Shown: positions 28,217 to 61,630 of the stretch, piece after piece
Numbering within the stretch: the first letter of the stretch is position 1
Layout: each line of letters begins with the position of its first letter
Assembly: GCA_964217375.1 (NCBI GenBank)
Contig: CAXPJQ010000059.1
Span: 11,208-75,207 of the forward strand
DNA length: 64,000 nt
Direction of reading: 5' to 3'
DNA from: Bdellovibrionales bacterium
GTDB taxonomy: Archaea; Nanobdellota; Nanobdellia; Woesearchaeales; UBA583
Translations under genes and position numbers: made by a program
Notes under the pieces: model-generated
What the model was told of the DNA's origin: nothing
Database searches by the model: none
What the model saw: the letters and a program-made list of their open reading frames with translations, nothing else

Positions 28217-28290
28217 AAGAGAAAATGCATAAAAATAATTTAAAATACTTTGTATTAAATTTAAGGGAAAAAAATAAAAAAATAATTAAT

Positions 28291-30179: not shown

Positions 30180-31019
30180 TTATCCATAAGCCTCGTATTT
30201 TTTTAAACCTATTTTCCAATTAAAATAAATTAAAATATTTAAAATTAAAATAATTAAAAAAAATATTAAAAATAAATCCAAATAAAAAAAATAATCTATA
30301 TTAATATCATTTAATAAGGGAATTATTAATTTTCCAATAATATATGCAGGAAATAAAAAAAATAAATTAACTAATTTAAATTTATTAAAAAAAGGTGCAG
30401 GATATAAAACAAAAAGTGAGTTAGTCCTATATAATAGATTAGTTAAATTTTTTTCAAAATTTTTATAAAAAAAAGCAATTGAATAAATTAAATTATACAA
30501 AGAAAAATAAATTAAAATACAAAACAAAAAAAGAATTAGCAAGAAAATACAATTTAATAAATTCATCTGAAAACTCATAATTAAAATTATTAAAATTGGA
30601 ACATTAACAATTACATATGTTAATGAGGATGGAGATAAATCTGAAAAATGATATTTAAATAATAATTCTCCAGGTCTTACTAATAAATTATTTAGTTCTC
30701 CTTTTAAAATTATTTCAGTAAGAAAATCACTCTTCCATGCAAAAATTCCTGCAGTTGTCCTTAGAGTATCTTCAATTAAAATAAATGTAAAAATTAAAAC
30801 TGAACTCCAAGTAATAATTTCATCAAAATTTTGATTTAAAACTAAAACGAAAATAAAAAAAGTTGAAAGGTAAAAAATTTGTTCAAAAAAAGCTGAATAA
30901 AAATTTGATTTATACTCAATTAATCTCTTTAACATAATCTTAACATTCTCAAAAATATAATTAATATAAAAATTCATTTTTATCCAAAAGCCTCGTATTT
31001 TTTTAGGCCAATTTTCCAA
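30180..31019 (-). CDS. ABC-2/DUF990-like polytopic permease paralog 1 of the tandem array (probable true start at the Met of 'MNFYINYIF', about 30977)
   Basis: About 265 aa and polytopic. Family motifs 'G.LN..L.KP.NPF' (here 'GELNNLLVRPGELLF') and C-terminal 'FNWKIGLKKYEAYG*'. The annotated N-terminus 'MENWPKKIRGFWIKM' is the preceding paralog's 3' end read in another frame. Confidence 0.6.
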   Translation of the reverse strand: MENWPKKIRGFWIKMNFYINYIFENVKIMLKRLIEYKSNFYSAFFEQIFYLSTFFIFVLVLNQNFDEIITWSSVLIFTFILIEDTLRTTAGIFAWKSDFLTEIILKGELNNLLVRPGELLFKYHFSDLSPSSLTYVIVNVPILIILIMSFQMNLLNCIFLLILFLFCILIYFSLYNLIYSIAFFYKNFEKNLTNLLYRTNSLFVLYPAPFFNKFKLVNLFFLFPAYIIGKLIIPLLNDINIDYFFYLDLFLIFFLIILILNILIYFNWKIGLKKYEAYG

Positions 31020-31813
31020 TTAAATAAAAATAGTATTAAGTAAATAAAAATTGCCATAAACAAATAAAAAAATAAATCAAATCTTGATATATTTAAATTA
31101 TTTGGAAATAAAAATAAAACTAAAATTGAGTGGAAAAAAATAAATAAAAGAAATTTAAATTTAATCAACTTAAAAAAATTAATCGGATAATTTGATAAAA
31201 TTCCACTAACTGGATAAAATATTTTTAAAATCTCAAAATCTAATTTTTTATAATAAAAACCTAAAGTTTCAATTAATTGATGAAAAAGAAATTGATAAAC
31301 AATTAATATTAATACTAATAAAAACCAAACTAAAAGATTAATCTCTCTTTCATTAAAAAAAATTAATAAAACAAATAATTCAAATAAAGAAAATAAAAAA
31401 TAAATCAATGCAGAAGAAGATAAATTATGAAAATAATATTTTAACTTTATATTAAGAGGCATTACTAAATGATTATTAAATTGAGAATTAATAATTGAAT
31501 AAGAAATTGATTTTCCCCAGATAAAAAAACCAATGAATTGATAAATAATTTTAATTAAAACCTGATAAATAAGAAAATCAACAAAACTCCAACCTATCAC
31601 ATCTCCAAAATTTTTAGCAACAATGAAACTTACAAAATAAGAAATTATAACATAAATTATTTGTATTAAAAACACAGAGTATAAGTTTGCTCTATACTCT
31701 TTCATTGTTTGAAACATCAAAAATAAGTTTACTTTAAACAAATCAAAATATCTTGAATTAAACTCTTTCATTTTTATCCAAAAGCCTCGTATTTTTTTAG
31801 GCCAATTTTCCAA
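30980..31813 (-). CDS. ABC-2/DUF990-like permease paralog 2 (probable start at 'MKEFNSRYF', about 31771)
   Basis: Ends 'FNWKIGLKKYEAFG*' and has the internal 'NNHLVMPLNIKLKYYF' block. Its stop and the next gene's ATG are 2 nt apart. Confidence 0.6.
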   Translation of the reverse strand: MENWPKKIRGFWIKMKEFNSRYFDLFKVNLFLMFQTMKEYRANLYSVFLIQIIYVIISYFVSFIVAKNFGDVIGWSFVDFLIYQVLIKIIYQFIGFFIWGKSISYSIINSQFNNHLVMPLNIKLKYYFHNLSSSALIYFLFSLFELFVLLIFFNEREINLLVWFLLVLILIVYQFLFHQLIETLGFYYKKLDFEILKIFYPVSGILSNYPINFFKLIKFKFLLFIFFHSILVLFLFPNNLNISRFDLFFYLFMAIFIYLILFLFNWKIGLKKYEAFG

Positions 31814-32583
31814 TTAAATATTAATATAATTAACAAAACTAAATTTATTAAAAAAAATATGTGTATTGAATTAATAATGTTTAAATAATTATTATCAAAT
31901 AAAGGAATTAAAAAATAACCTATTGAAAATAATGGAAAGAAAATAAAAATTTTATGTAAAAAAAAATTTGAGAATAAAGGTGCAGGTAAATATTTAAAAT
32001 TAATATCGGTAAAAACTAATTTAGATCTAATATTATTGATTGATTTTTTAAATTTAAATCCAAAAGAATCAATAAAATGATAAAATATTAAGTATTGGAT
32101 AAAAAATAAAAAAATAAGTAAAAAAAATATAATTAAAGATAAAAAGGTAATATTAGTTTTAAACATAAAATAAATTATAAATGGAATATAAATCAAATTA
32201 ATAATAACTGTATTAAATGAATGTGAAAAAATATAGTTAAAAAAAGGATTTACAGGTTTTGTAAGTAAAATATTTAATTTCCCTGTTACAATATACTCAG
32301 CAAGAGATCTTCCAAAAAAAGTAACTCCTGCTACATTATTAAGAAAAGTCCCAATTAGATATAATAATAAAAAATCAATATAACTCCAATCAATTAATAA
32401 AGAAAAATTTTGAATTGAAATTGTTGCAGTTGCTAAAACAAAAAACAAGTCTGAAATTTCTCCTAAAATTAAAGCATAAAAAGTTGGTTTATATTCTAAA
32501 AGAGATTTTATTGAAATTTTAAAATTAGTTAAAAATATTTCAAAATATTTTTTAAAAATACCCCTAGTTTTTAAATATGCCAT
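31774..32583 (-). CDS. ABC-2/DUF990-like permease paralog 3
   Basis: N-terminal 'SLLEYKPTFYAL', 'GKLNILLTKPVNPFFNY', and C-terminal 'FNWKIGLKKYEAFG*'. Confidence 0.6.
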   Translation of the reverse strand: MAYLKTRGIFKKYFEIFLTNFKISIKSLLEYKPTFYALILGEISDLFFVLATATISIQNFSLLIDWSYIDFLLLYLIGTFLNNVAGVTFFGRSLAEYIVTGKLNILLTKPVNPFFNYIFSHSFNTVIINLIYIPFIIYFMFKTNITFLSLIIFFLLIFLFFIQYLIFYHFIDSFGFKFKKSINNIRSKLVFTDINFKYLPAPLFSNFFLHKIFIFFPLFSIGYFLIPLFDNNYLNIINSIHIFFLINLVLLIILIFNWKIGLKKYEAFG

Positions 32584-32585
32584 TT

Positions 32586-33383
32586 TTATCCAAAAGCCTC
32601 ATACTTTTTTAAGCCATAATGCCACTCAATTAATAATATAATAAAACAAATTAATCCAAAAAATAAAAAATTAGGTAAATATACAAATACTTCAGTTGTT
32701 CTTCCTTTAAGAATTTCTATGAAGAAGTAATCAATAAAAGCAACTGGAAATAAATAAACTAACTCAACTATTTTTGTATTCTCAAAAAATTTAGGAGTAT
32801 AAGTTTCAACAGTAGAATTTAAATTTCTATAATATATTTCAAAAAGGTAATTAACTAACCCTTTTGTAAAAAAAGCCATACTAAATATTACATTTAAAAA
32901 TAAAACTTGAATTAAAAAACCTATTAATACTATTAAAAAAGCAAATAAAAAATTGCTATAGTCTTGACTTATAAAAATTAAAGATAATGTAATTATAAAT
33001 AAAATAAATGTAAAAGGTATAAATGAACCTCTAATCTCGTGTAAAACTAAAAAAAAAAATGGATTAACTGGTTTTGATAAAATTGTATTTAACTTACCTC
33101 TCTTTAAAATAAATACTAACATTCTAACCCAAAAAAATCTTAAAAATAGTGAAGAAAAAAACCCCATAAAAAAAAATAAAATGAAATCATAAAAATTCCA
33201 ATCTAAAATTCCATTACTCAAGTCATTAAAAAAATAATAAAAAAATAAATATGTTATAGTTAAAGAAACATTTACTAAAAAGCCCATAAAAAAATCAATT
33301 TTATATTCTTTTAATTGTTTCAAAGCTAAGATAAATTGAATTTTATAAACTGAAAAAATATTGGTTTTCATTTTTTTATCCAT
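32586..33383 (-). CDS. ABC-2/DUF990-like permease paralog 4 (probable start at 'MKTNIFS', about 33371)
   Basis: 'LKEYKIDFF', 'RGKLNTILSKPVNPFFF', and C-terminal 'EWHYGLKKYEAFG*'. Confidence 0.6.
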   Translation of the reverse strand: MDKKMKTNIFSVYKIQFILALKQLKEYKIDFFMGFLVNVSLTITYLFFYYFFNDLSNGILDWNFYDFILFFFMGFFSSLFLRFFWVRMLVFILKRGKLNTILSKPVNPFFFLVLHEIRGSFIPFTFILFIITLSLIFISQDYSNFLFAFLIVLIGFLIQVLFLNVIFSMAFFTKGLVNYLFEIYYRNLNSTVETYTPKFFENTKIVELVYLFPVAFIDYFFIEILKGRTTEVFVYLPNFLFFGLICFIILLIEWHYGLKKYEAFG

Positions 33384-34183
33384 AAGCCTCGTATTTTTTT
33401 AATCCGTAATGCCAAAGTAAATATGTTCCAAGTATAAAAAAATAAGAATGTGAATAATATTCCAAAAAAATAATAATAAAACTCCAAAAAATTATTTTTT
33501 AAAATCTCAATATAAAAGTATCCAATTAAAGCATTAGGTAGTAAATATAAAAACCAAAGAATTGAATCTCTAAATACTCTTGGTGTGAATTGCTCATTTA
33601 AATAATGTAGTTGATTTGAAACACTCACAATAAATGAAATATCTTTAATGAAAAATGCAAATGATTGAAAAAAAGAGATAAAAAATACATAATAAATCAA
33701 ACCAAAAAATAAAATTAAAAATGAAAATAGATAATTTGAGTATTCTCCAAAAAAAAGTAATATTAAAAGTATTGGGATAAAAATAAAAGTAGTATAAATT
33801 GCTGAATCTTTATCTCTAAGAGATAAAGCTAAAAATGGATTAATTGGTTTTGAAATCCATATATTTAAGTCTCCATTTAATAGCTTTAAATTAAAATATC
33901 TTAACCTAAACCAATAAGTTGCTTTTGTAATTAATGAAATACTCACATAAAATAAAATAAAATCATAATAACTCCAAGATAAAAATTCTTTTGAAATATC
34001 TTGAAAGATATTATAAAAAAGCAAATATACTAAGGTTAAAATTATATCAAAATAAAATACTGAAAAAAAATTAGCAGGATACTCTTTTATCTGTTTAAAA
34101 GCTTGAGAATAAATTTCTTTCATAAAGTTAATATGTTTTCTAAATGTATTTATTTTATTAATCTCTTTCATTTTTTTATCCAT
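33368..34183 (-). CDS. ABC-2/DUF990-like permease paralog 5, 3'-terminally frameshifted relative to the family
   Basis: 'IKEYPANFF' and 'GDLNIWISKPINPFLAL' are present, but the ORF ends '…TWNIFTLALRIKKIRGLWIKK*'. The family C-terminus 'LLWHYGLKKYEAYG*' is encoded in the adjacent reading frame of the same DNA at 33376..33420. The nearest paralog is 39605..40381. Confidence 0.5.
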   Translation of the reverse strand: MDKKMKEINKINTFRKHINFMKEIYSQAFKQIKEYPANFFSVFYFDIILTLVYLLFYNIFQDISKEFLSWSYYDFILFYVSISLITKATYWFRLRYFNLKLLNGDLNIWISKPINPFLALSLRDKDSAIYTTFIFIPILLILLFFGEYSNYLFSFLILFFGLIYYVFFISFFQSFAFFIKDISFIVSVSNQLHYLNEQFTPRVFRDSILWFLYLLPNALIGYFYIEILKNNFLEFYYYFFGILFTFLFFYTWNIFTLALRIKKIRGLWIKK

Positions 34184-34988
34184 AAGCCTCGTATTTTTTT
34201 AATCCATAATACCAAAGTAAATATGTTCCTAAAATAAAGAAAATAAAACTTGAAAGTATTACTTCAAAATACTTAAAAAATAAATAATTTCCTTTCAAAA
34301 TATTAACTAGAATAAAACTTCCCAAAGCAGAAGGGAAAATATAAATAAATTTCAAAAATAAATTATCCCTAAATGAATTTGGAGTGAATTCTTTTATTCT
34401 ATTATTTATCTTACTAGAAATATCAACTAAAAAAAAATTATTTTTAATAAAAAAAGCAGTTGAAATAAAAAAAGTTACAAATATTATTTGATAAATTGCA
34501 GAAAAAATAAAGTAAAATAAAAAGATAAAATTAAATTGATAAAAATAGAAAAGTAAAAATAGAAAAGATAAAAAAACTAAAGATGAAACAACTAAAACTG
34601 CTCCATTAAATCTAGTTGAAAAATAAAAAAATGGATTAATTGGTTTTGATAAAACAATATTTAATTTACCTTCTAATAAATCCCTATTTAATCTCTTAAC
34701 TGAAAAAACTATTACAAATTTTCCAAGTAATAATAAAATAAAAATAAACATTAAATAATCTACTTCATTCCAATTTGAAATTGAAGAAATTAAAGGAAAA
34801 AAAGCTAAATAAAAAGAAATCATAACTAAAATATAAACTAAATTAATTAGTAAAGCAGACCATAAATTAGCTTTATACTCTTTATTTTGTTTTAAAGCAA
34901 CACTAAAAATCTCAACTAAAACATCAAAATATTTAATGAAAATACTTCTATCTCTAAACTCTTTCATTTTTCTATCCAAAAGCCTCAT
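34176..34988 (-). CDS. ABC-2/DUF990-like permease paralog 6 (probable start at 'MKEFRDRSIF', about 34967)
   Basis: 'NKEYKANLW', 'GKLNIVLSKPINPFFYF', and C-terminal 'WYYGLKKYEAYG*'. Confidence 0.6.
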   Translation of the reverse strand: MRLLDRKMKEFRDRSIFIKYFDVLVEIFSVALKQNKEYKANLWSALLINLVYILVMISFYLAFFPLISSISNWNEVDYLMFIFILLLLGKFVIVFSVKRLNRDLLEGKLNIVLSKPINPFFYFSTRFNGAVLVVSSLVFLSFLFLLFYFYQFNFIFLFYFIFSAIYQIIFVTFFISTAFFIKNNFFLVDISSKINNRIKEFTPNSFRDNLFLKFIYIFPSALGSFILVNILKGNYLFFKYFEVILSSFIFFILGTYLLWYYGLKKYEAYG

Positions 34989-35784
34989 ATTTTTTTAAAC
35001 CATAATGCCAAATTATTTTTTCAAGAAAAATTAAAAAAATTAAAAATAAACCTCCTAAAATATAACTCAAATAAATTAAATCTAGAGAAACTTTTCCAAA
35101 GTAAAAAGAAATAGGTAAAACTCCATAAAGAGAAAAACCTATTATTAAACCAAAGAAAAATAAACTATTTTCAAATAATATTATTGGAAATTGGTGATAT
35201 AATCCGTCAAATCTTCTAAAAAATTTTAAAATTAAATAATTTTCTTTAATAAAAAAAGCAAGAGAATCTAAAACTCTAAATTCAAAAACTAAAATTCCTA
35301 TACCAATTAAGGAAATTAAAAAAGTTAGAATATAACTAGGATTTAAAAAGTTAAAATATAATCCAAAAAATAAAAATAAAATTAAATCAAAAAAGCAATA
35401 AAATAAAGCATAATATGGAAAATAAGTAATTGTACAAAAAAAATTAGTTAAAATTGGTTTAGTTAAATATAAATTTAAATCTCCTAATTTAATAGTATTT
35501 GAAAATTTTTTATACCACAAAAACAACCCAAAACTCATAACTAAAACTTGAGAATGTAAAAACATAAATATAATTTCAAAAATTGTAAAATCAATAAAAG
35601 AAAAATTATTTAATACAACTATTGTTGAAAAAATCATTACTAAATTAAATGTTAAATGGGAAATTGTTCCAGTATAAAACTGAGCCTTATATTGAAGAGC
35701 TTCTTTAATCCCAATACTAAATCTAGTTAAGAAAACATCAAAATATTTACCAATACAATTCCTTTTAACAAATTCTAAACTCAT
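34972..35784 (-). CDS. ABC-2/DUF990-like permease paralog 7
   Basis: 'ALQYKAQFY', 'GDLNLYLTKPILTNFF', and C-terminal 'WHYGLKKYEAFG*'. Confidence 0.6.
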   Translation of the reverse strand: MSLEFVKRNCIGKYFDVFLTRFSIGIKEALQYKAQFYTGTISHLTFNLVMIFSTIVVLNNFSFIDFTIFEIIFMFLHSQVLVMSFGLFLWYKKFSNTIKLGDLNLYLTKPILTNFFCTITYFPYYALFYCFFDLILFLFFGLYFNFLNPSYILTFLISLIGIGILVFEFRVLDSLAFFIKENYLILKFFRRFDGLYHQFPIILFENSLFFFGLIIGFSLYGVLPISFYFGKVSLDLIYLSYILGGLFLIFLIFLEKIIWHYGLKKYEAFG

Positions 35785-35793
35785 AAGAGAGTT

Positions 35794-36633
35794 TTAACCT
35801 CCAAAACTCTCTAATTTTGCAAATCCTTTTTTATATAAATATCTCATAAGTAATGCAAGTAAAATAATCCAGAAAGTGAAAATCCCCATAGCTTTTAATG
35901 CTTCAATTAAAGTTAATTTCCCAAGATATAGTGATGCAAAAGTAAATTCTAAATATAAAAAAGGAGTCCACGCTAAAAAGCTCTGCATCCACATTGGAAA
36001 TAAAGTTAGAGGTAATACCCTTCCTGATAAAATCCATAAAATTTGTTCAATTGATGCTTTAATCCCCCAAATTTCTACAAACCAAAAAGATAACCCTCCA
36101 ATAATTACATACAATACTATATCAAAAATTAACATTAAAAATAAATAAATTACAAATACAATCCAAATTGATCCACTTGGTGTTGGCAAATCAAATAGAT
36201 AAGTCATTACAATTAAAAGAATTGTAAATACAAATAAATTAACTACTTTAGATCCAATTCCATCTGTAAGTAAAGACTTTACAAAATTTACTGGCCTACA
36301 TAAAAAAATTGAAATATCTCCAGATTTAATTGTCTGAGAAATTCTATCTGCAATTTCTGAGGATCTTGCAGTATTTAAAAGTAAACCAATTATTAAATAA
36401 ACCATCATTTCCTGAAAAGTAAATCCTCCAATTGTAAATTCTGAAAGTGATGATACTAAAGCTGTTCCCTCAGCAAGAGCTGTCTCAAATTTTACTTGAT
36501 AAATATAAGACCAAATGTAATAAAAAAACACCCCCATAAATGCAGGTGTTACTAATGCTCCAATTAAATATGACTTATATTCAATTGAAGTTTTAAATCC
36601 AAGTTTAAAATATTCTAAATATTTGTTTGACAT
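35794..36633 (-). CDS. ABC-2/DUF990-like permease, divergent second type (first permease downstream of the nuclease gene)
   Basis: 'SIEYKSYLIGAL', 'GDISIFLCRPVNFVKS', and a divergent C-terminus 'YKKGFAKLESFGG*'. It is less Ile/Phe-biased than the other copies. Confidence 0.55.
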   Translation of the reverse strand: MSNKYLEYFKLGFKTSIEYKSYLIGALVTPAFMGVFFYYIWSYIYQVKFETALAEGTALVSSLSEFTIGGFTFQEMMVYLIIGLLLNTARSSEIADRISQTIKSGDISIFLCRPVNFVKSLLTDGIGSKVVNLFVFTILLIVMTYLFDLPTPSGSIWIVFVIYLFLMLIFDIVLYVIIGGLSFWFVEIWGIKASIEQILWILSGRVLPLTLFPMWMQSFLAWTPFLYLEFTFASLYLGKLTLIEALKAMGIFTFWIILLALLMRYLYKKGFAKLESFGG

Positions 36634-36636
36634 TTT

Positions 36637-37689
36637 TTAATTTAATTCCTCCAATGTTTTTTTTAACTCTTCTACACTTGGAAGCAACCCTTCAAATTTT
36701 TTAGGGAGACTTTTTGTAGTATTGTAGGTTCCAACACCAATTGGTTTTGAAGAATCTTTAAGAGAATATTCTACAATGGTTCTATTTTTTTCTTTACACA
36801 ATATAATTCCAATAGAAGGATTTTCATGTTTTAATTTAACTTTTTCATTTAGAGCAGATAAATAAAAATTCATTTTTCCTGCAAATTCTGGTTTAAATTC
36901 AGTTATTTTTAATTCAATTGCAACTAAACATTGGAGCTCTCTATGAAACAAAAGTACATCAATAAAATATTCTTGATCTCCTATTTCTAATTTATATTGT
37001 GTTCCAACTAAAGAAAAAAAGCCTCCAAATTCTTGTAAACTTTTTTTAATATGTAAAATTAAAGATTCTTCTAGTTCTCTTTCTGAATGTTCTGCACTAA
37101 GCTCTAAAAAATCAAAAGTATATTCATCTTTTATTGCAAGTTTTGCCTGAGACTTAAGATGATTAGGTAAACTTTTTTCAAAATTTGTTTGATTTGTCAT
37201 ATACTTTTCATAAGATTGGTTTTCAATTTGATGTTTTAAAACATTTTTTGTCCATCCAAATTTTTTTGTCATCTTAATGTAAAACTCTCTTTCTAATTCA
37301 TTTTTACATTTTTCAAAAATTAAAACATTTTTTGTCCAACTAATTTCACGCACCAATGGTGCGAGTTTTTCATTATCAAAATAAGAAGAGTAAAATGCTT
37401 TCATTCTTCTAAGAGTTCCAGCTGAGAAACCTGAAATTCCTGGAAATTCTAATTGTAATTCTTTTGAAAGGTTCTCAACAACAGAATCTCCCCAAGAATA
37501 TTTTTTTTGTTTCTCAACAATAAATTTACCTAAATTCCAATATAAATTAATTAATTCTTTATTTACAGTTTTAAGTGCTTTATATTGAGATTCTAAAATT
37601 AAAGATTTCACCTCAACTACAAAATTTTTAAAATTTTTATCTAAATCTGACATTTTATTCTCCTTTATTTTGTTCATACATCTCTGCAA
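36637..37689 (-). CDS. YhcG/DUF1016-family PD-(D/E)xK nuclease (RecB-like restriction-endonuclease fold); probable start at 'MSDLDKNF', about 37653
   Basis: N-terminal DUF1016 block 'NKELINLYWNLGKFIVEKQKKYSWGDSVVENLSKELQLEFPGISGFSAGTLRRMKAFYSSY'. C-terminal nuclease core 'EYFIDVLLFHRELQCLVAIELKITEFKPEFAGKMNFYLS…IGIILCKEKN', in which D, E and K form the PD-(D/E)xK triad. Confidence 0.6.
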   Translation of the reverse strand: MQRCMNKIKENKMSDLDKNFKNFVVEVKSLILESQYKALKTVNKELINLYWNLGKFIVEKQKKYSWGDSVVENLSKELQLEFPGISGFSAGTLRRMKAFYSSYFDNEKLAPLVREISWTKNVLIFEKCKNELEREFYIKMTKKFGWTKNVLKHQIENQSYEKYMTNQTNFEKSLPNHLKSQAKLAIKDEYTFDFLELSAEHSERELEESLILHIKKSLQEFGGFFSLVGTQYKLEIGDQEYFIDVLLFHRELQCLVAIELKITEFKPEFAGKMNFYLSALNEKVKLKHENPSIGIILCKEKNRTIVEYSLKDSSKPIGVGTYNTTKSLPKKFEGLLPSVEELKKTLEELN

Positions 37690-38686: not shown

Positions 38687-38818
38687 AAATATTTTCTTTA
38701 TAAATTAAAATTATTTTTTTTCTTTAAAATAGTTTGTATTTAATTTTAGATATTAATTAGAAATAATATCCATATTTTGCAAATTAAAACTAAAAAAAAA
38801 TAATTCTGCTTTCATATT

Positions 38819-39601: not shown

Positions 39602-39604
39602 ATT

Positions 39605-40381
39605 TTAACCAAAAGCCTCATACTTTTTCAAGCCAATTTTCCATAAAATATAATTTCCAAATATAAAAATTAAAAATGAAATAATAATAAATATAAAATA
39701 CTTAGAAAGATAATCAAATCTATTATTAACTAATTCAATAAAATAAAAACCAAATAAAGCAGTAGGCAAGTAAAATAAAAAATTTAATTTAGTACCCTCA
39801 AATACCTTTGGAGTAAATCTATCATTTAGGTATGCAACATCTTTGCTAATTCTTATGATAAAATTATTTTGTTTTATAAAAAAAGCTAATGACTCAAAAA
39901 AATCTGTATATACTATGTAATATATTAAACTAAAAAACAACAACAAAATTCCCTGAAATATATTTTGATAAGGTCCATAAAGGTATAATATAATTAAAAA
40001 AAATAAAAAAATAAAAGTTGTAAAAATTGCTCCATCCTTTGCTCTCGAAGACATTCCAATAAAAGGATTAATTGGTTTAGATTTCCAGATATTTAAATCT
40101 CCTAAAAGTAATTGTTTATTTAAACTCCTTAAAATAAAAAAATATGTTCCTTTACTTATCATTTGAATAGTTACATATAGTAAAATAAAGTCTAAATAAG
40201 TCCAACTTAAAAAATTAAGAGATAAGGATTGAATAATTGAATAAAAAAATAGATATACAATAGTCAAAGAAATATCAAAATAAACAATACTCCAAAAATT
40301 AATAGGATATTCTTTAATTTGTTTAAATGCTTGAAAATATATCTCTTTCATAAAATTAAAGTGATTTTTTACAATGTTCAT
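39605..40381 (-). CDS. ABC-2/DUF990-like permease paralog (upstream pair, member 2)
   Basis: 'IKEYPINFW', 'GDLNIWKSKPINPFIGM', and C-terminal 'WKIGLKKYEAFG*'. Its N-terminal third is near-identical to that of paralog 5. Confidence 0.6.
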   Translation of the reverse strand: MNIVKNHFNFMKEIYFQAFKQIKEYPINFWSIVYFDISLTIVYLFFYSIIQSLSLNFLSWTYLDFILLYVTIQMISKGTYFFILRSLNKQLLLGDLNIWKSKPINPFIGMSSRAKDGAIFTTFIFLFFLIILYLYGPYQNIFQGILLLFFSLIYYIVYTDFFESLAFFIKQNNFIIRISKDVAYLNDRFTPKVFEGTKLNFLFYLPTALFGFYFIELVNNRFDYLSKYFIFIIISFLIFIFGNYILWKIGLKKYEAFG

Positions 40382-42117
40382 TTTTGCATATTTAACATAT
40401 TATAAAATTTAGACTTTTTATCTTTTATTAATTCTTTGTAGTTACCTTGTTCAATTATTTTTCCTTGTTCAAATACAAAAATTCTATCTACATTTTTTAA
40501 TGTGGATAATCTATGTGCAATAATTAAAATTGTTTTATTTTTAATTAAGTCAATTCCTTTTTGAATTTTCATTTCAGTTTTAGAATCAAGAGCTGAAGTT
40601 GCCTCATCTAGAATTAAGATCTCTGAATTTTTACAAATTGCTCTTGCAATTCCAACTCTTTGTCTTTGCCCTCCAGATAATTTATATCCTTTCTCACCAA
40701 TAATTGTATCAAGTCCATTTGGTAATTCTTTAATTACCTCATTAAGTTGAGATATTTCAATTGCTTTTCTCAAAGTTTTGGAATCTATCTCCTTAAACAT
40801 TGTAATATTTTCTTTGAGAGTTACATTTAACATCTCAGTTTCTTGCATAACTTGAGATAAATTATCTAAAAGAGATTGATGTGAAAAATCATAGTAATTA
40901 GTATGATCTACTTTTATTTCTCCTTCATTTATTTGATAAAGTCCTAAAAATAATTTTGAAAGAGTTGATTTTCCTGAACCTGAATGTCCAACAATTCCAA
41001 TTTTTTCATGTTTTTTAATTTTAAATGAAATGTTATCTAAATTATTTTTTTTATTATCATAAGAGAAAGATACATTATTGAAAGAAATTGTTTTCCAATC
41101 TTTTTTAAATTCTTCTTCTCCAAAATACTTTTCTTCTTTAGTTTCAAAAATAGGTATGATTCTATTCATTGCAGATCTAATTGATATAAGATCATTAAGT
41201 ATTGAATTTGATCTCCAAAATGATGCTGTAATTTGATTAAAATATACAAATGAAGTAGCAATAAATCCAACTTCAACTAGTTCATTTGATACAAAGTGTC
41301 CTAGTAATAATAAGAAAAAAAATAAACCAAAAGCGATTAAGTAATTCACATGTTTTGTTCTAGTGTTTCCGATTTTAATTGCTCTGAACTGAACTTCTTT
41401 GAAAGTAATTTCTCCTTTTTTCATAGATGATTTCAAAGATTGAGAAGAACCACTAGATTTTATGGATAAGATATTGTTTGCTCCTTCATTAAGAGACCCT
41501 GAAACTTTTTCTAATACTTTATTTTTCTCTTCTTCTATATCAGCTTGCTTTTTTAAAAAAGATTTCATAATTAAAATAAAAACTCCAACATAGACTATAA
41601 AAAATAATAAAAAATACAAATCTAAAAATAAAAAAATAATAATAACTCCTGAAAAAGTTAATATTAACCCAAGAGCATCTTGATTAAATACATTAATTAA
41701 CTGTCTATAACTACTAGATCCATTGTTTACTTTTTGAAGTTTTGAACCTGAACCATCTTTTTCGTGCCATTTTAATGAAAAATTTAAAAGTTTTTCAAAA
41801 GCAAAATTTCTTGCTTTAAAAGTTGTATTAACACCAATCTCCTTTAGTTTTCTTTTTGCAACCATTCTCACTTGAGAAGTTAATAATCCTGAAAAGAGAA
41901 TTATTCCTGTGTATATGTAAAATAAATTTAATGAATCTCCTTTATTATATTCTGTAAAAAAATTAATTATCAACCCAATAATATATGGGATAATTAGTGT
42001 ATTGGAATGAGATAAAAAATTAAGACTCATATAAAATGAAAACTTTAATCTCTCACCCTCTAAAAAGTGCCATAATGACTTAAACATATGTGTCCATGTA
42101 ATTATTTCTTTGTTCAT
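40378..42117 (-). CDS. fused TMD-NBD ABC exporter (MsbA/multidrug-exporter type)
   Basis: Six predicted TM helices, then Walker A 'GHSGSGKSTLSKLF', signature 'LSGGQRQRVGIARA', Walker B 'ILILDEATSALD', and H-loop 'IIAHRLS'. A 4-nt ATGA overlap joins it to the neighbouring genes on both sides. Confidence 0.85.
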   Translation of the reverse strand: MNKEIITWTHMFKSLWHFLEGERLKFSFYMSLNFLSHSNTLIIPYIIGLIINFFTEYNKGDSLNLFYIYTGIILFSGLLTSQVRMVAKRKLKEIGVNTTFKARNFAFEKLLNFSLKWHEKDGSGSKLQKVNNGSSSYRQLINVFNQDALGLILTFSGVIIIFLFLDLYFLLFFIVYVGVFILIMKSFLKKQADIEEEKNKVLEKVSGSLNEGANNILSIKSSGSSQSLKSSMKKGEITFKEVQFRAIKIGNTRTKHVNYLIAFGLFFFLLLLGHFVSNELVEVGFIATSFVYFNQITASFWRSNSILNDLISIRSAMNRIIPIFETKEEKYFGEEEFKKDWKTISFNNVSFSYDNKKNNLDNISFKIKKHEKIGIVGHSGSGKSTLSKLFLGLYQINEGEIKVDHTNYYDFSHQSLLDNLSQVMQETEMLNVTLKENITMFKEIDSKTLRKAIEISQLNEVIKELPNGLDTIIGEKGYKLSGGQRQRVGIARAICKNSEILILDEATSALDSKTEMKIQKGIDLIKNKTILIIAHRLSTLKNVDRIFVFEQGKIIEQGNYKELIKDKKSKFYNMLNMQK

Positions 42118-43073
42118 TTTAGTATGTTATGAATTTCTTCTAATTTATTTAAGCAATTATTTCTCATGGTATCTTTTCTTTTTATTGTCTGAGGCTCATC
42201 TAAGTTCCTCCATTTATGAGACTTTAATTTGGATAGTCTACTTAAATTTTTCATCCATGTATAAAAATAATATAATCTCTCCCAATTTTCAGGCAATTCA
42301 TTATATTTTGAATATCCTTTTACAATTGAAGTTTTGTACTTAAATTTTTCATCACCAAAATCAAATCCAGAAAAAAGGTCTTCTATTGTCCCACTAACTC
42401 TTGCGAATTCGAAATCTATGATACCATGAATTAGGTTATTTTTTATTATAAGGTTTGTGTTTGATGCATCTCCATGACATAATCTAGGTTCTGATTCTAA
42501 AGAAAGTAAGTGCTTATGTTTTTGATAAAATTGAGATTCTGTTTCAATTTGTTCTTCTGAGATAATATTATCTTCTTTTAATCTTTCAAACATTTTATTA
42601 ATTTCATTTTCTTTTTTTTCTTGCCATGATTCATATGAATGTCTTTGTTCTAGTTTATAATTTAATTCAGAATATTTTTCATATTTAAAAGAATGAAACA
42701 TTCCATAAATCTCACCATATTGTTCAAATAATTTCTCTTTATTTGTTATTTTATTGTAAACCTTCTTTAATGATTTTCCTTCAATTTTTTCTAAAATAAT
42801 AAATGAATAATTTACTTCTTTTTTTGAATAATTATCATAAATAATATCTGCAATTGGAAAGTTTGGATATTTATTTTGAAGTAATTCTTTTAGGGCTTTT
42901 TGTTTTAATGCTAATTTTTTATCTTCGAGTAATTTTATTTTCTTGAAAACTATACCTTTGTTTTCTAGCTTGATATCATAAGCTACATTATTATATCCCT
43001 CTTCAAATTCTTTTATTTCTAAGATTTTTTCATTAGGAAAAATTTTAGTTAGTAATTGTTTTATTTCTTTCAT
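42114..43073 (-). CDS. aminoglycoside-phosphotransferase (APH)/choline-kinase-family small-molecule kinase
   Basis: Brenner motif 'LCHGDASNTNLII' and the downstream 'IIDFEFARVSG', which is the DFG equivalent. 319 aa. Confidence 0.65.
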   Translation of the reverse strand: MKEIKQLLTKIFPNEKILEIKEFEEGYNNVAYDIKLENKGIVFKKIKLLEDKKLALKQKALKELLQNKYPNFPIADIIYDNYSKKEVNYSFIILEKIEGKSLKKVYNKITNKEKLFEQYGEIYGMFHSFKYEKYSELNYKLEQRHSYESWQEKKENEINKMFERLKEDNIISEEQIETESQFYQKHKHLLSLESEPRLCHGDASNTNLIIKNNLIHGIIDFEFARVSGTIEDLFSGFDFGDEKFKYKTSIVKGYSKYNELPENWERLYYFYTWMKNLSRLSKLKSHKWRNLDEPQTIKRKDTMRNNCLNKLEEIHNILK

Positions 43074-43480
43074 TTTAATTGTTTAATTAATTCTATTTCA
43101 TTTAATGAATTAGTTTTATTTGTCTTTTGATAATTTAGTTTCTCATAAAACATTATTGCTTTTTTATTATCTTCTTCTACATATAATTTTATTTGAAAGA
43201 AATTTTTAATTTTTATTTCATTTTCTAAGAATTTGATTAAATTTGAACCAAAACCCTTTGATCTCAAATTCTCATCAATATATATATCTTCAAGAATTGG
43301 AATTTTTTTCCACAAAATTCTACCATGTCCAATTGGGTTATCATTGTCCCATATAATATAAAATAAACTTTCTTTTTTCTTTTGAGACTCTAATCTCTTT
43401 TCAAAAGGTTCTCTTACACTCCATTTTTTTTCTATAATATCTAGATCTGATTCTTGAAGATTTTTTATTTGGATATTCAT
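43070..43480 (-). CDS. GNAT-family N-acetyltransferase
   Basis: 136 aa. Motif A region 'ENLRSKGFGSNLIKFLENE' (R/Q-x-x-G-x-G/A). Confidence 0.6.
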   Translation of the reverse strand: MNIQIKNLQESDLDIIEKKWSVREPFEKRLESQKKKESLFYIIWDNDNPIGHGRILWKKIPILEDIYIDENLRSKGFGSNLIKFLENEIKIKNFFQIKLYVEEDNKKAIMFYEKLNYQKTNKTNSLNEIELIKQLK

Positions 43481-44094
43481 TCTATAATTAACACCTCTCC
43501 ATCTCTTAGAGTTCTATATGGAATATTATTTTCAATACAATATTGAACTTCTTTTTCAATATCTTCTGATTCAGGGTGATCCGAATCAAAGTGAGGTAGA
43601 ATCATATAATCTAAAATACCTAATCCTTCCCAAATTGTTTCTTTTATTTCCTTATATGGAAAATCATAAGGATCATCTACAATTTGTAATGACTTCATAT
43701 CTTTATACAAAATACAAAGAGCTGCACTAAATCCTGCATATAAAAAATCATTATTTAAATTTGTTTGTATATATCTATCAAATCCCGATAATTTCATTGC
43801 TTGTCTTAGAACAAAAGTATTTCCTCCATTAATCCAAATAGCTTTTACTTCATCTAATTTTTTAAATAATTCTTTTGATTTACCAAAGTAATCTCTTAAA
43901 TCTAATACTTCAGGTTCAAGCCCTAATTGTTTTAAACTATTAATTTGATTTGACATATTAATTTTTTTTCTTTCTAAATCCTTAGCTGTAAAATCCATTG
44001 CATTTGGAATATAGAAAATTTTTTTATTTGGAATCATTTCTTTTAATTTGTTTCCTTGATTTCCTATTTTATATGATGATAAATAAAATTTCAT
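43477..44094 (-). CDS. peptidase S51 (dipeptidase E/cyanophycinase-like) family protein
   Basis: 'AIWINGGNTFVLRQAM' matches the GGNTF nucleophile-elbow region of S51 peptidases. Size is about 205 aa. Confidence 0.5.
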   Translation of the reverse strand: MKFYLSSYKIGNQGNKLKEMIPNKKIFYIPNAMDFTAKDLERKKINMSNQINSLKQLGLEPEVLDLRDYFGKSKELFKKLDEVKAIWINGGNTFVLRQAMKLSGFDRYIQTNLNNDFLYAGFSAALCILYKDMKSLQIVDDPYDFPYKEIKETIWEGLGILDYMILPHFDSDHPESEDIEKEVQYCIENNIPYRTLRDGEVLIIE

Positions 44095-44624
44095 TTTTCT
44101 AAGTCCTCTCTAAGAAAATCATATTCTAGACAATCATACCAATTCCCCTTATCATCATGCCATGCTTTTCTAAATTGCCCCGCTTTTAGAAATCCAGCCT
44201 TTGAAAAGAGATTTTGCATTGCTACATTATCTTCTCTTGTTGAGCCTTCAATTCTTCTCACTTTTGGATAGTTTTTGAAAATATAGTTAATCATAAAACT
44301 GATTATTTCTAATCCATATCCTTTTCCTCTTTTTTTTGAGTTGATTCTAATGTCAAATTTAGGTGCTTCAGTTTCATCATTAATTAGATCATCTAATTTT
44401 AAGAATGCACAAATTTTTTCTTTCTCATAAATCAAAAAAGTAACTTGTTTTCTATTTGTGTAATAAGTTCCTTTGAGTCTCTCTTCGAGTTCTTTTCTTG
44501 TAAGTTTTGACGAACCGTGATATTTCCATTCTTCTGAGAGTAAAAATTGAATAAGATCTTCTGACAATTTCCTTGTAAATTTTTTATATATTAATTTCAT
44601 TTTTCTAGTTTCATTTGCATCCAA
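44091..44624 (-). CDS. GNAT-family N-acetyltransferase
   Basis: 'RINSKKRGKGYGLEIISFMINY' is motif A. 177 aa. Confidence 0.6.
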   Translation of the reverse strand: MDANETRKMKLIYKKFTRKLSEDLIQFLLSEEWKYHGSSKLTRKELEERLKGTYYTNRKQVTFLIYEKEKICAFLKLDDLINDETEAPKFDIRINSKKRGKGYGLEIISFMINYIFKNYPKVRRIEGSTREDNVAMQNLFSKAGFLKAGQFRKAWHDDKGNWYDCLEYDFLREDLEK

Positions 44625-45055
44625 TATGCTACAGTTTTAAATCCTAAATTTTGATATAATTCTAAATTACTCTCAAATGAATTTAATTCAACTTGATCAC
44701 ATCTCCCTTCTTTAGCAATTTGTTTTGCTTTTTCAATTAATTTTTTTGCATAACCTTTTTTTCTTTCATTTTTATTTACATATAGTTTTCCTATGATAAA
44801 TTTTTTCTTACCACTTTTTCCTTCTCTTATTGAATAGGTAAGATATCCAATTTGATTTTCAAGTATAATTGTATTACTTTTTGCTTTATCTAAAGAAAGA
44901 ATTTCTTCTTTAAACTTTTCTAAGCCAAATTTATTTGGTTTAAAGTCAGGATTACTTGAAAACATATCTTCAAATGTTGATAAAATATAATTCAAATCTT
45001 TTTCTTTATTGAAGTTTCTTATGTTCATTTTTCTGTTGGTGTTTTTATCCTCCAT
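44597..45055 (-). CDS. GNAT-family N-acetyltransferase (paralog of 49690..50133)
   Basis: 'VNKNERKKGYAKKLIEKAKQIAKE' is motif A. The N-terminus 'STFEDMFSSN' and C-terminus 'ELYQNLGFKTVAYWMQMKL' parallel those of the 49690..50133 protein. Confidence 0.6.
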   Translation of the reverse strand: MEDKNTNRKMNIRNFNKEKDLNYILSTFEDMFSSNPDFKPNKFGLEKFKEEILSLDKAKSNTIILENQIGYLTYSIREGKSGKKKFIIGKLYVNKNERKKGYAKKLIEKAKQIAKEGRCDQVELNSFESNLELYQNLGFKTVAYWMQMKLEK

Positions 45056-45792
45056 CCATCTACTTCAAGACCTCCCATGTTATCTAAAACATATTTTGAA
45101 ATTTTCTTTGAATATAGATACATTTTTTCTGTATCTGTTTCCTCGATTGCTTTAATGAATAAAGTTACAAATTTTTTGTCTGGAAATTCTGGTAAGTTAT
45201 ATTTTTTTTGATCTTTTTTTTCTTTTAAGAGTCTTCTAACTTTATTAATTGATACATTATGCCATCCTAAGAACTTAGAATATGTTTGAAATGTTTTATA
45301 CAATACATTATGATACACAAATGTAAAATCATTTTTTCCTCTTTTATATACTTCTTCTAAATTATCTTGTTCATCCCAAAGAAGATATTTTGAAATTTCA
45401 TTCTCTGTTTTACTTGGTTTTTTGAAGGTTTTATTCATATACTTTTTTGATAAATTTACTAATTCTTTTACTGAATTATTTTTATCAAAAATAATTTTTC
45501 CAGTTGTAAACATATGTGCTTCTGTTGATCTATTATTCTTGTAATTTCCTTCTAAATATTTTTCAATTTGGTGTGGGGGATTAACAAAATATTCAATCAA
45601 AAATCCATCTACAACTTCATTTCCTCTGAGTCTCCAAGTACAAGAATTATCTAAAATAATATGCAAATCAATGTCTGAGTTTTCAGTAGGTCTTCCAGTT
45701 ACATAACTTCCACAAACTAATGCTCCTTGGACTTCTTTTTTGTTCTCCCAATTTTTGAGAAATTTTCGTGTAGCTCTTTCCCAGTCTTTCAT
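45025..45792 (-). CDS. nucleotidyltransferase-fold protein (ANT/KNTase/Lnu-like minimal NTase)
   Basis: 'GALVCGSYVTGRPTENSDIDLHIIL' follows the GS…D-x-D pattern. The 255-aa size is similar to ANT(4'). Confidence 0.6.
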   Translation of the reverse strand: MKDWERATRKFLKNWENKKEVQGALVCGSYVTGRPTENSDIDLHIILDNSCTWRLRGNEVVDGFLIEYFVNPPHQIEKYLEGNYKNNRSTEAHMFTTGKIIFDKNNSVKELVNLSKKYMNKTFKKPSKTENEISKYLLWDEQDNLEEVYKRGKNDFTFVYHNVLYKTFQTYSKFLGWHNVSINKVRRLLKEKKDQKKYNLPEFPDKKFVTLFIKAIEETDTEKMYLYSKKISKYVLDNMGGLEVDGWRIKTPTEK

Positions 45793-45849
45793 TTTCTTCT
45801 TATTCCTAATTAAAATCTTTTAAAAAGATTATTCACTTATATAGTACAA

Positions 45850-46617
45850 TTATCTGTTTATTCTCTCTTCAAGAGTTTTTCCAAAATCATCTATAAAAGT
45901 AATCATTTCATCTGAGAAAGTCTTTGGAATATTATTTAATTCTCTTTGTTGTTCAAGTGCTTCTTCAAGTTCTTTTTTATTTTTTAATGTACTTACTCCT
46001 TTTGGTAAGTTATGAACAACAGATACTATTTGATCAAATTCCTCATAAGTCATATCAAATCTAGGTTTAGGTGGATTTTTACTCTCTTGATATTCAATAG
46101 AGTCACTTAATCCCATAACTGGAGAATAGCTTAGAGCAAGATGATTTGGAAAAAGATGAGGTACAACAATTTCAAAATATGGTGTGTTAATTCCAATTCC
46201 TGAATTTAGAGTTAAATATGCTCCAGACATTTCATTTCTCCCTTTTGGAATTCCTTTTACTCTCTTATATCTTGGCGAATCTAAATCATCTCCTGGAAAT
46301 TCTAAAAAAGTAACCTCTTCTTGAAAGGGTAATATCTGATCAAAAATCAATCCATATTTATGTGTTGATAGGTGATTTTGAGTATGTTGTAAAGATCTAT
46401 AAAAATCAAGAGTGTTGACATATTCAAAACCTTCATGATAAAGAGTTTCCCTTAGAGGATTTACACCACAACCTTCGTTTAAGTAAGAACAAAACATTTG
46501 TTCATTACCTGTTTCTATATCAAGTAAGTTTGAGAGTCCTTGTACTTCAAGTACTTTTATGAAACGAACAGGCGTATCTAAAAATTTCTCTTCTATCTTT
46601 GTTTGTATTAATTCCAT
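45850..46617 (-). CDS. hypothetical protein
   Basis: 255-aa ORF with no recognised motifs. It sits in the same co-directional string. Confidence 0.3.
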   Translation of the reverse strand: MELIQTKIEEKFLDTPVRFIKVLEVQGLSNLLDIETGNEQMFCSYLNEGCGVNPLRETLYHEGFEYVNTLDFYRSLQHTQNHLSTHKYGLIFDQILPFQEEVTFLEFPGDDLDSPRYKRVKGIPKGRNEMSGAYLTLNSGIGINTPYFEIVVPHLFPNHLALSYSPVMGLSDSIEYQESKNPPKPRFDMTYEEFDQIVSVVHNLPKGVSTLKNKKELEEALEQQRELNNIPKTFSDEMITFIDDFGKTLEERINR

Positions 46618-46620
46618 ATT

Positions 46621-47169
46621 TTATTTTTTCTCTCTTGAGCTATCAATTTTTTCTGCAATTCTCTGAGCTTCTCTATATTGGTTTGGTGTATTATTTTGAT
46701 TTCCTAATGAATTAAGTAATTTTTTTATTAATTCTCTGGAACTATTTCCTGAAGTTAAACCACTAATAGACTCAATTCTCCCATTTACATTATCAATAGT
46801 ATCTTCCAAACCTGGTGCTACTTGAGTTGAAAAATAATGTGCTTGGGCATCACCATATAACCATGGAAAAACTGGCAACTTATTTTCTCCTAAAAGAGCT
46901 TTTTCTCCAGTCTCTAATTGAATAGTATCAAAAAAACCATCACAGTTTGTATCATAAAAATTCGTACTATTTTTAATCTCAATTGAATTAATACAATAAT
47001 TTGATCTATCTGTTGTATATGTAACTTGTGTGTTATCTCCAATACTCATTTTGTATTGCTCTACTTCTTTTGCATCTAAACTTGCTGAATTTAATGCAAG
47101 TAGAGATGTTCCTAATATTTTTGTTAATTTTTTCATTTTTCTTTGTAAATTATAGTAGTAATTAAACAT
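46621..47169 (-). CDS. small secreted protein (signal peptide; probable start at 'MKKLTKILG')
   Basis: 'MKKLTKILGTSLLALNSASLDA' is a signal peptide. Two Cys are present ('NYCINS', 'TNCDGF'). Confidence 0.35.
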   Translation of the reverse strand: MFNYYYNLQRKMKKLTKILGTSLLALNSASLDAKEVEQYKMSIGDNTQVTYTTDRSNYCINSIEIKNSTNFYDTNCDGFFDTIQLETGEKALLGENKLPVFPWLYGDAQAHYFSTQVAPGLEDTIDNVNGRIESISGLTSGNSSRELIKKLLNSLGNQNNTPNQYREAQRIAEKIDSSREKK

Positions 47170-47381
47170 ATTTAAAATTAAATTTATTATTTTTTACAAA
47201 AATCTAATAAGTTTTAATTTCAATTAGAGTTTTTACTAATGATGTAATAATTAGTAGTATCTAAAACTACTTTAATCAAGGTTTTCACTTTGCTGATTAC
47301 TATTATTTATATTGTAAATATTAATAGTAACTTAAACTATATTAAATTAAATTGAGTTTTTTCTACAATTTTGGTTAAATA

Positions 47382-47840
47382 TTATTTCAATTTATTAAAT
47401 TCTCTTTCTATAATTGAGGTTAATCCTTTAATTTTTTGGACTCCTTCTTTGTAAGGTAAGTTCATATCAATATCTGAAACTATAAGTTCAACTCCATTAT
47501 CATCAATATAGTCATATTCATCTGCAAACTGAAAAATTGGAGAGTAACCTTGATTTTTCAATTCTTTTTCAATATTTGAAATAGTTAAATATCCTTTGAT
47601 AATTTTATCCATGTAATGTCCTTTTTTTTCTTCATTAATTCCATTATTATTGAGATAATTTATTTCTAAAATAAGAACTTTCTGTCGCTCAAAAAGTTCA
47701 AAATGCATATAACCCTGATCTACATCTAATGAAGGATTTCTATAATAAGTTAAACCATTTCCGTGGTCCCCTACAAGTTTAAATCCTAATTGCTCTAATG
47801 TGTGATATACACCTATTGGCGTTATTTGTTTGTTTTCCAT
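47382..47840 (-). CDS. hypothetical protein
   Basis: 152-aa ORF. It is the first gene of the minus-strand string and is divergent from the Lrp gene. Confidence 0.3.
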   Translation of the reverse strand: MENKQITPIGVYHTLEQLGFKLVGDHGNGLTYYRNPSLDVDQGYMHFELFERQKVLILEINYLNNNGINEEKKGHYMDKIIKGYLTISNIEKELKNQGYSPIFQFADEYDYIDDNGVELIVSDIDMNLPYKEGVQKIKGLTSIIEREFNKLK

Positions 47841-61625: not shown

Positions 61626-61630
61626 AAAAT

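Follow-up and report, generated by a model that had tools for sequence, protein, structure and literature searches.

Why would an archaeon of the DPANN group, whose genomes are host-dependent and only about 1 Mb, maintain as many as ten versions of a single membrane subunit next to one motor? We address this question in a 64,000-nt stretch of DNA (contig CAXPJQ010000059.1 of assembly GCA_964217375.1; hereafter, the window), in which minus-strand open reading frames (ORFs) follow one another without interruption from 47840 down to 30180. A preliminary description made from the sequence had compared this string to an antibiotic or toxin resistance island or, alternatively, to a locus for biosynthesis, export and self-immunity. 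We find that the string is a composite of two parts: (i) an ABC transporter core, in which one conserved permease (A) is accompanied by ten divergent permeases (B); and (ii) a variable cargo of enzymes, a nuclease and other small genes. The contrast between A and B had been overlooked, and it is the center of our analysis.

The core is an ABC-2 operon of the DUF990/EVE family (PF06182; TCDB 3.A.1.141). In transcription order it consists of an ABC ATPase (37655..38686; PF00005) with a DrrA-like nucleotide-binding domain (NBD) and a C-terminal extension, 71-90% identical across relatives; a YhcG/DUF1016 PD-(D/E)xK nuclease (36637..37653), which lies between the ATPase and A; the A-type permease (35794..36633; PF06182, E 4.7e-20); and seven B-type permeases, B03 (34972..35784), B04 (34176..34967, start corrected), B05 (33368..34171), B06 (32586..33371), B07 (31774..32583), B08 (30980..31771) and B09 (30180..30977), the last of the array. 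Two further B genes, B01 (39605..40381) and B02 (38819..39601), lie upstream of the ATPase. A solitary one on the same minus strand, B10 (52374..53189; PF06182, E 4.9e-14), sits about 5 kb upstream of the string, outside the interval originally flagged. The "eight permeases" first listed after the nuclease are indeed of PF06182 type, but they comprise one A and seven B proteins; B10 is an eleventh PF06182 permease.

The assignment to A and B rests on several lines of evidence. PF06182 matched nine of the eleven permeases, with 72.8 bits for A and 24.5-53 bits for B02-B04 and B06-B10 (gathering cutoff 22). B01 and B05 gave no Pfam match at E ≤ 0.01; these two share 53% identity and can be aligned over their whole length with the other B proteins, as can B03, and B01 scores 285 bits against the B profile. 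A and B separate cleanly by profile score. Identity between A and the B copies is 15-20%, and among B copies it is 21-53%. All ten B proteins, including solitary B10, share the C-terminus W-x2-GLKKYEA(F/Y)G, with the exception of B05, which is frameshifted. The one studied member of the family is EvrABC, a viologen exporter (PMC5417439). Two of the corresponding orthologous groups, COG3694 and COG4587, are listed as of "unknown function" and are sometimes under riboswitch control in Firmicutes (ppGpp) (PMC6003355). Rfam and tRNA scans of the window returned a tRNA-Lys at 59017 as their sole match, and no riboswitch before the operon.

We compared approximately 65 loci, scoring every ORF with A, B and ATPase profiles. 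The archaeal comparators are contigs from metagenome-assembled genomes (MAGs) or metagenomes, many of them short, such that copy numbers are minima, and some bins are mislabelled. More than 20 bacterial loci all carry overlapping ATPase, A and B genes in the ratio 1:1:1, and one archaeal locus with an A of 50% identity (L046) likewise has one B. Archaeal loci with an A of at least 58% identity, and not cut by contig ends, have 2, 2, 2, 3, 3, 3, 3, 3, 4, 4, 6 and 8 B genes. A metagenome scan for A loci yielded mostly contigs shorter than 4 kb; it added a locus with at least 4 B genes (L042) and L046. The order ATPase-A-B holds in all bacterial and archaeal loci, from which the window departs in the number of B genes and the insertion of YhcG. 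The core itself is thus conserved across the lineage, as one would expect of core genome, whereas the block of enzyme genes upstream of it is found only in a close sister. From genome to genome the operon adjoins different core genes (ribosomal proteins, aminoacyl-tRNA synthetases, PolD subunits), and the flanks are unrelated to those of the window even at 90% A identity.

We note some irregularities among these loci. The contigs L002 and L003, both from DS_MAG177, carry two copies of ATPase-A-B with 93-96% protein identity and dS of about 0.7, which points either to paralogous operons or to two strains in one bin. The ATPase of an otherwise intact operon with A and six B genes in L031 (9053-9999) is split into ORFs of 114, 96 and 82 aa, which could be a pseudogene or the result of long-read indel errors. 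L004, L007 and L010, labelled Methanosarcinales, and L011, labelled Fusobacteriaceae, have an operon of Nanoarchaeota type with an A of 61-72% identity, and are probably mis-binned.

The number of B genes is one aspect of their variability; their sequence is another. A is 50-90% identical across more than 80 archaeal homologues, with 83 of 84 matches at least 50% identical to the window protein. By comparison, a HMMER scan with the B profile gave 177 clusters (50% identity) at E ≤ 1e-30, a number that rose to 1305 at E ≤ 1e-10; it superseded a word-indexed search that had returned 17 matches from 8000 low-complexity candidates. Against L002 and L003, the window ATPase is 90% and A 89-90% identical, and the best B matches are only 26-52% identical. 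The upper value is that of B09 with the third B of L002 in the locus-wide comparison (48.6% by ORF-level BLAST). This divergence does not reflect runaway drift. The ratio of nonsynonymous to synonymous substitution (dN/dS) between the orthologous first B genes of L002 and L003 is 0.10, and dN in this pair exceeds that of A and the ATPase by a factor of only 1.6-3.5. The low identities are therefore due to differing cassette content. In a neighbor-joining tree, the window B genes are interspersed with those of other genomes, with few young pairs, such as B01 and B05.

The clearest view of this turnover comes from the sister contig L033. Its DNA runs collinear with that of the window, at 84-95% identity, as far as the start codon of B01, with dS values of 0.09-0.24 for the NTase, S51 and APH genes described below. 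The B gene that follows the fused exporter in L033 is 31-36% identical to any window B, and similarity returns in the last 55-99 nt. The L033 contig ends exactly at the conserved 3' motif and ATG. A B cassette has been replaced here in a near-isogenic context.

The last ~30 nt of each B gene are conserved as DNA, reading GGnYTAAAAAAATAYGAGGCWTWTGGWTAA and then ATG. When another B gene follows directly, the terminal YEAFG has GAG as its Glu codon in 23 of 25 cases, versus 13 of 24 otherwise (Fisher p = 0.004); in long ORFs, GAA is the usual Glu codon and GAG makes up 22%. Examples are found at 31774-31810 and 30980-31015 in the window, and in L002, L005 and L031. The GAG codon yields GAGG about 13 nt before the next ATG, and at the 3' end of A a GGAGGT lies equally far from B03. 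These features suggest that GAGG is a ribosome-binding-like (Shine-Dalgarno-like) coupling element for the next cistron. In a survey of the window genes, Shine-Dalgarno motif matches were too few to define the organism's spacing. The same 3' junction is likely to be a homology patch for unequal crossing-over and cassette exchange.

Junctions of a second kind mark the gain and loss of whole cargo genes. Comparison of the enzyme block with L033 revealed whole-gene indels bounded by direct repeats of 9-11 nt that span a stop and a start codon, GAAAAATGAA and AATTAAAATGA. They lie at 45024-44100 and 43054-43101 in the window and at 7839-7849 and 8886-9975 in L033. The window has two extra GNAT genes and L033 an extra PF00756 esterase. 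The AAAATGA coupling junctions are the break points of these changes.

We next consider how one A and many B proteins could work with one ATPase. Conservation across 143 B representatives is confined to three patches: one near the N-terminus (K-x3-EYK-x-N), one in the loop between transmembrane helices TM2 and TM3 (G-x-L-N-x2-L-x2-P-x-N) and one at the C-terminus (W-x2-GLKxYEAFG). Each has a counterpart in A. An AlphaFold2 (AF2) model of A (pLDDT 77) matched Wzm and KpsM with a TM-score of 0.65-0.70 and probability 1.00. The AF2 model of B07 (pLDDT 72.5) had Wzm, KpsM and PmtD as its top targets in the PDB, with weak scores (Foldseek E >0.1, TM-score 0.47-0.57). By analogy with Wzm, the three patches would correspond to the interface helix, the coupling loop and the cytoplasmic end of TM6, all facing the ATPase.

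B05 is a special case. At its 3' end (33368-33440) the gene encodes "...RIKKIRGLWIKK", the family C-terminal motif in the +1 frame, and the other frame gives "...ILGTYLLWHYGLKKYEAYG*". The conserved motif is lost because of a frameshift in or next to a run of T. The same sequence is present in an independent assembly (GCA_041240545.1, L001), so the frameshift is either a real lesion or a homopolymer error common to both assemblies.

We propose that the ATPase dimer and A would form a constant module, which may pair with any one of the alternative B half-channels to give heterodimeric pumps with one motor and differing substrate-facing halves. Substrate specificity would then lie in B, and transport would probably be outward. 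In this clade of Nanoarchaeota, the B gene has given way to a tandem array of ancient, highly dissimilar paralogues, with cassettes gained, lost and replaced between genomes, probably by recombination at the ~30-nt 3' junction. Cargo genes have been threaded in at AAAATGA stop/start junctions and ride in the translationally coupled string. As a whole, we consider this proposal somewhat better supported than its negation; we are highly confident of its anatomy, and evenly divided over the pairing of A with alternative B proteins. In a bolder form, which we offer tentatively and with more doubt than conviction, the operon would be a combinatorial DPANN transporter, with an invariant A and a library of B proteins swapped at a 30-nt junction that doubles as a coupling signal, and a symbiont with a reduced genome could rapidly re-tune the substrates that it exports (or possibly scavenges, for example host lipids).

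Several points weigh against the constant-module proposal. B-B dimers, or one B at a time under regulation, would fit the data equally well. The placement of the patches at the ATPase comes from alignment to the pLDDT-77 model of A and the Wzm analogy rather than from a model of the complex, and the fold model for B07 is weak by the scores given above. B05 lacks its C-terminal motif, so not every copy need be functional. As to turnover, the loss of different genes from a large ancestral array would look like exchange at every site but the L033 junction, and the argument for cassette replacement consists of that single clean junction together with identity contrasts. The neighbor-joining tree is a simple, crude one, and the archaeal relatives are all contigs of the kind described above, with minimum counts and some mislabelled bins. 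Finally, the recurrence of GNAT, NTase and APH genes near the operon could be a real functional link, although our proposal takes it to be incidental.

What, then, is the cargo? The co-directional run begins with a hypothetical 152-aa protein (47382..47840), an ORF without Pfam or PADLOC match that is followed by a 212-nt gap. Next are a 182-aa protein with an N-terminus that reads like a signal peptide (46621..47169; no Pfam match, 79% identity in L033), a hypothetical 255-aa protein (45850..46617; no family match, 91% identity in L033) and NTase255 (45025..45792), a Pol-beta-type nucleotidyltransferase (PF18765, PF01909). They are followed by GNAT152 (44597..45028; PF00583) and the RimJ/RimL-like Acetyltransf_3 protein GNAT177 (44091..44600; PF13302), both with starts corrected, that of GNAT152 to an ATGA overlap, and both missing from L033; a peptidase of family S51 (43477..44094; PF03575, E 2.6e-19; 98% identity in L033); GNAT136 (43070..43480; PF00583; 92% identity in L033); the APH-fold kinase APH319 (42114..43073; PF01636); and an ABC exporter with fused transmembrane domain and NBD (40378..42117; ABC_membrane and ABC_tran; 78% identity in L033). 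Pfam confirmed all of the domains named at the outset.

These enzymes match broad Pfam families only. NTase255 scored 23 bits to MntA (cutoff 60), and a PDB sequence search with it gave no meaningful match; a homologue (E 1.4e-89) lies between the ATPase and A in L012/L027. The three GNAT proteins are below all NCBIfam cutoffs. S51 reached 33 bits to PepE (cutoff 156), APH319 reached 30.3 bits to APH(3') (cutoff 205), and the fused exporter is MsbA/ChvA-like, far below cutoffs. APH319 has ten homologues of 41-46% identity, one named Woesearchaeota and in an unrelated context, and those of 43% identity are located elsewhere; some APH homologues carry a precomputed match to the choline-kinase family PF01633, but APH319 does not. 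The housekeeping families that could have accounted for these genes did not do so either. Matches to RimI (24.7-37.9 bits versus 86.4) and Bud32 (31 versus 125) fell short of the cutoffs, and there was no match to a CCA-adding or tRNA NTase. The enzyme genes have dN/dS values of 0.09-0.24 (0.085 for NTase255 and 0.11 for S51 against L033), which points to purifying selection and to cargo that is functional but variable, the block being common only to the very close L033 and L034.

In the same manner, the interior of the operon receives different genes in different genomes. YhcG is a full-length match to PDC-S02 of PADLOC (PDLC04831, E 1.7e-136), with PF17761 at 3.8e-43 and PF06250 at 3.1e-57, and was the only convincing result in a PADLOC scan that included the enzymes and hypotheticals. 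It is absent from the ATPase/A junction in L002, L003, L005, L008 and L009, and L024 has a 58-aa remnant there. Elsewhere this junction is occupied by a GNAT (L004, L007), an isochorismatase (L032), a 450-aa protein and a Nudix-like ORF (L010; Nudix box identified by eye), Bro-N and the NTase255 homologue (L012/L027), or a 241-aa membrane protein (L025). Between or after B genes we found MNT/HEPN pairs (L029, L031), IS630 copies (L024), DUF7557 with a PemK-family or unannotated partner (L032, L030) and a RelE-like ORF (L006, by eye). Given this variety of inserts across relatives, the operon is a recurrent landing site for small self-contained genes.

We weighed the constant-module proposal against other explanations, starting with the possibility that the whole string is an island for detoxification and efflux of xenobiotics or antibiotics, in which many B proteins widen the drug range. 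EvrABC, the sole characterized member of the family, exports viologens (PMC5417439). Moreover, seven ATGA overlaps in a row join NTase255 to B01, the enzymes are under purifying selection, the best PDB matches of the kinase are to APH(2'') (weak, E 1e-3), and modifying enzymes recur at the operon elsewhere (GNAT in L004/L007, Nudix in L010, isochorismatase and APH in L032, NTase in L012). Nevertheless, no enzyme reaches any curated cutoff for AAC, APH, ANT or Sat in NCBIfam/AMRFinder: the highest scores, 25-30 bits, compare with cutoffs of 140-400, as in 25.5 versus 140 for AAC(6') and 25.7 versus 380 for Sat4, and ANT gave no match. Each genome has a different enzyme set and most operons have none around them, and more distant APH homologues occur in unrelated contexts. 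The same positions also take toxin-antitoxin, nuclease, Bro-N and insertion sequence (IS) genes, which fits a general insertion hot spot better than a pathway. The resistance island suggested at first found no direct support in this comparison, and we regard the detoxification reading as unlikely. Its companion, a locus that would make and export a secreted, bacteriocin-like toxin or peptide and provide self-immunity to it, appears extremely improbable. The fused ABC exporter is of an MsbA/HlyB-like class and a peptidase is present, and the RimL-like GNAT may be reminiscent of microcin C immunity. Yet the scanned ORFs include no precursor peptide, synthetase, radical-SAM or other biosynthetic gene, the exporter is without a peptidase C39 domain, and the block is not conserved beyond the sister genome.

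Other explanations concern the B array itself. It might represent surface variation, in which membrane-exposed targets of viruses, host factors or competitor toxins are under diversifying or frequency-dependent selection and transport is secondary. Such a scenario would account for the extreme contrast between a conserved ATPase and A and hyperdiverse B proteins, for conserved patches that are presumed to be cytoplasmic only, for the cassette replaced in a near-isogenic context and for the defense-type and toxin-antitoxin genes embedded in the operon. It is difficult to reconcile with a dN/dS of 0.10 between orthologous B genes, which is purifying rather than positive selection, and with proteins that are almost wholly membrane-embedded, with short loops and little exposed surface; evidence for a phage receptor is also lacking. 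We therefore consider it quite unlikely, less probable than a detoxification island. The extra B genes could instead be redundant or decaying duplicates without a role of their own that arose neutrally, through unequal crossing-over at the junction repeated along the array. The frameshifted C-terminus of B05, a B gene of L033 that is frameshifted in a homopolymer run, split B ORFs in L006 and L011, and a copy number that varies freely from 1 to 10 are all consistent with decay. However, nine of the ten window B genes are intact, full-length ORFs and have kept the three patches at 21-53% identity, which implies long-term purifying selection, in agreement with the low dN/dS of the orthologous pair, and the arrays persist across a clade of streamlined genomes of ~1 Mb. 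Decay as a general explanation is thus very unlikely in our view.

After correction of start codons, using the gene calls of GCA_041240545.1, the string has 22 genes. It is co-directional and tight, as first described, with fewer genes than the ~25 estimated then. In transcription order, the gaps are 212, 3 and 57 nt, followed by seven 4-nt ATGA overlaps in a row from NTase255/GNAT152 (45025) to the fused exporter and B01 (40378), then 3 nt, and 132 nt before the ATPase (given previously as 130). After the ATPase they are 1, 3 and 9 nt, and B-B junctions range from -4 to +4 nt, with an eighth ATGA overlap at 33368. The overlaps reported before were all present. Among 53 same-strand junctions scored over the whole window, all eight ATGA overlaps fall inside the string; outside it, gaps are mostly >10 nt and many are >60 nt. 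The tight packing is therefore real and local. GCA_041240545.1 reproduces the stretch from the ATPase to B09.

The sequence of the string suggests at least two transcription units, NTase255-B02 and ATPase-B09, because the 132-nt AT-rich spacer (38687..38818) contains a run of nine T 17 nt after the B02 stop, and because the operon starts with the ATPase in all relatives. The spacer would then hold a terminator and the native promoter region of the operon. Further transcript breaks are possible at the 212- and 57-nt gaps. A sigma-70 promoter scan found 124 sites versus 154 in shuffled sequence, and a terminator scan found 2 versus 2.5 expected; these models are bacterial and wrong for archaea.

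The host of the window is a DPANN archaeon (Nanoarchaeota), as had been presumed. The window ATPase has an identical counterpart on GCA_041240545.1, the A permease has close homologues named "Nanoarchaeota archaeon" or Woesearchaeota, and archaeal core genes lie on both flanks (aIF5B, FtsZ, ScpB, LonB, PheRS alpha and beta, and also primase small subunit, RIO kinase and CofD). The window has a GC content of ~24%. At third codon positions (GC3) it is a uniform 0.12-0.15, whether in core genes, enzymes, ABC genes or the B array. The local composition, whose comparison with the flanks had been proposed as a check, gives no sign of recent foreign origin. The B array has a GC content of 19%, with the deficit in codon positions 1 and 2, and is low in GC because of its amino-acid composition.

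How does this locus compare with known systems? EvrABC of Synechocystis PCC 6803 (COG4586/COG4587/COG3694) belongs to the same Pfam family and has the same three component types in the order ATPase-A-B. It differs in that EvrABC and the bacterial systems have one B, while the window has ten and its relatives 2-8 with cassette-like turnover; in that the window operon is interrupted by a nuclease gene; and in that its host is archaeal. The window A is 25-30% identical to bacterial A-type genes. As modelled, A appears to share an N-terminal interface helix, six TM helices and the TM2-TM3 coupling loop with the type V transporters Wzm-Wzt, KpsMT, TarGH and PmtCD. The transmembrane domains of these are homodimeric, and A is 13-18% identical to them. 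In contrast to Wzm-type systems, there are no polymer- or glycolipid-synthesis genes near the window operon.

A constant half combined with alternative specificity subunits has precedents in other transporters. In group II energy-coupling factor (ECF) transporters, one EcfAA'T module serves many S components, and Drosophila White, an ABCG half-transporter of the ABC-2 fold class, pairs with Brown or Scarlet. The logic would be alike, but these are analogies only: there is no sequence relationship to ECF S or T components, and in the window the alternative subunits are lined up in tandem next to the genes of the motor. As a genetic arrangement, the array resembles integrons and orphan-immunity arrays, with tandem same-strand units that look promoterless, a short conserved junction and turnover of whole units. 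Unlike integron cassettes, the B cassettes all belong to one protein family, and their junction is a coding 3' end plus start codon, whereas integrons have an attC hairpin (hairpins were not searched for here). No integrase or recombinase was found among most ORFs of at least 120 aa at 8.7-63.4 kb (11070-12706 and the region below 8.7 kb were not scanned). YhcG matches a PADLOC phage-defense candidate and sits inside a transporter operon; its defense role is likewise that of a database candidate.

We did not find the array, its turnover or the insertion hot spot described in open-access papers or on bioRxiv. If the constant-module proposal is true, the locus would be a prokaryotic ABC-2 example of a shared module with many specificity subunits, and the first encoded as a cassette array. 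It would also offer a testable handle on how symbionts diversify their membrane traffic. For annotation, a caution follows: clusters of GNAT, APH and NTase genes in such genomes should not be read as resistance islands.

The surroundings of the string contain further genes of note. Downstream, the co-directional run extends to 25016, with a 608-aa protein and a 1066-aa surface-type protein. The 608-aa protein had been described as having an NTase domain; it has no Pfam match, and only a G-S-x10-D-x-D motif can be recognized by eye. At what appears to be the matching place in L030 (1-3017) is a 603-aa PF27408 (AF2028_C) protein. In both the window (25016-30117) and L030, the 608/603-aa protein adjoins a very large surface protein of Big_13/Laminin_G type, and the two may be a conserved gene pair. 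A second ABC-2 system, unrelated to the array, occupies 60503-63998. Its parts are an ABC_tran protein (60503-61234), a 595-aa ABC2_membrane_3 permease (61631-63418) and another ABC ATPase (63366-63998), which runs past the end of the window.

Upstream of the string are two divergent double helix-turn-helix (HTH) regulators of the Lrp/AsnC type (47942-48910 and 50135-51127). Between them lie a class I S-adenosylmethionine (SAM) methyltransferase (48946-49653) and a fourth GNAT (49690-50133), and a 295-aa protein without family match (51224-52111) comes just before the solitary B10. A regulator of the same architecture, ~329 aa in length, is found in the Woesearchaeota contigs L035, L037 and L038 (~300-2560), near a distant APH homologue and together with a cyclodipeptide synthase (PF16715) and a GNAT.

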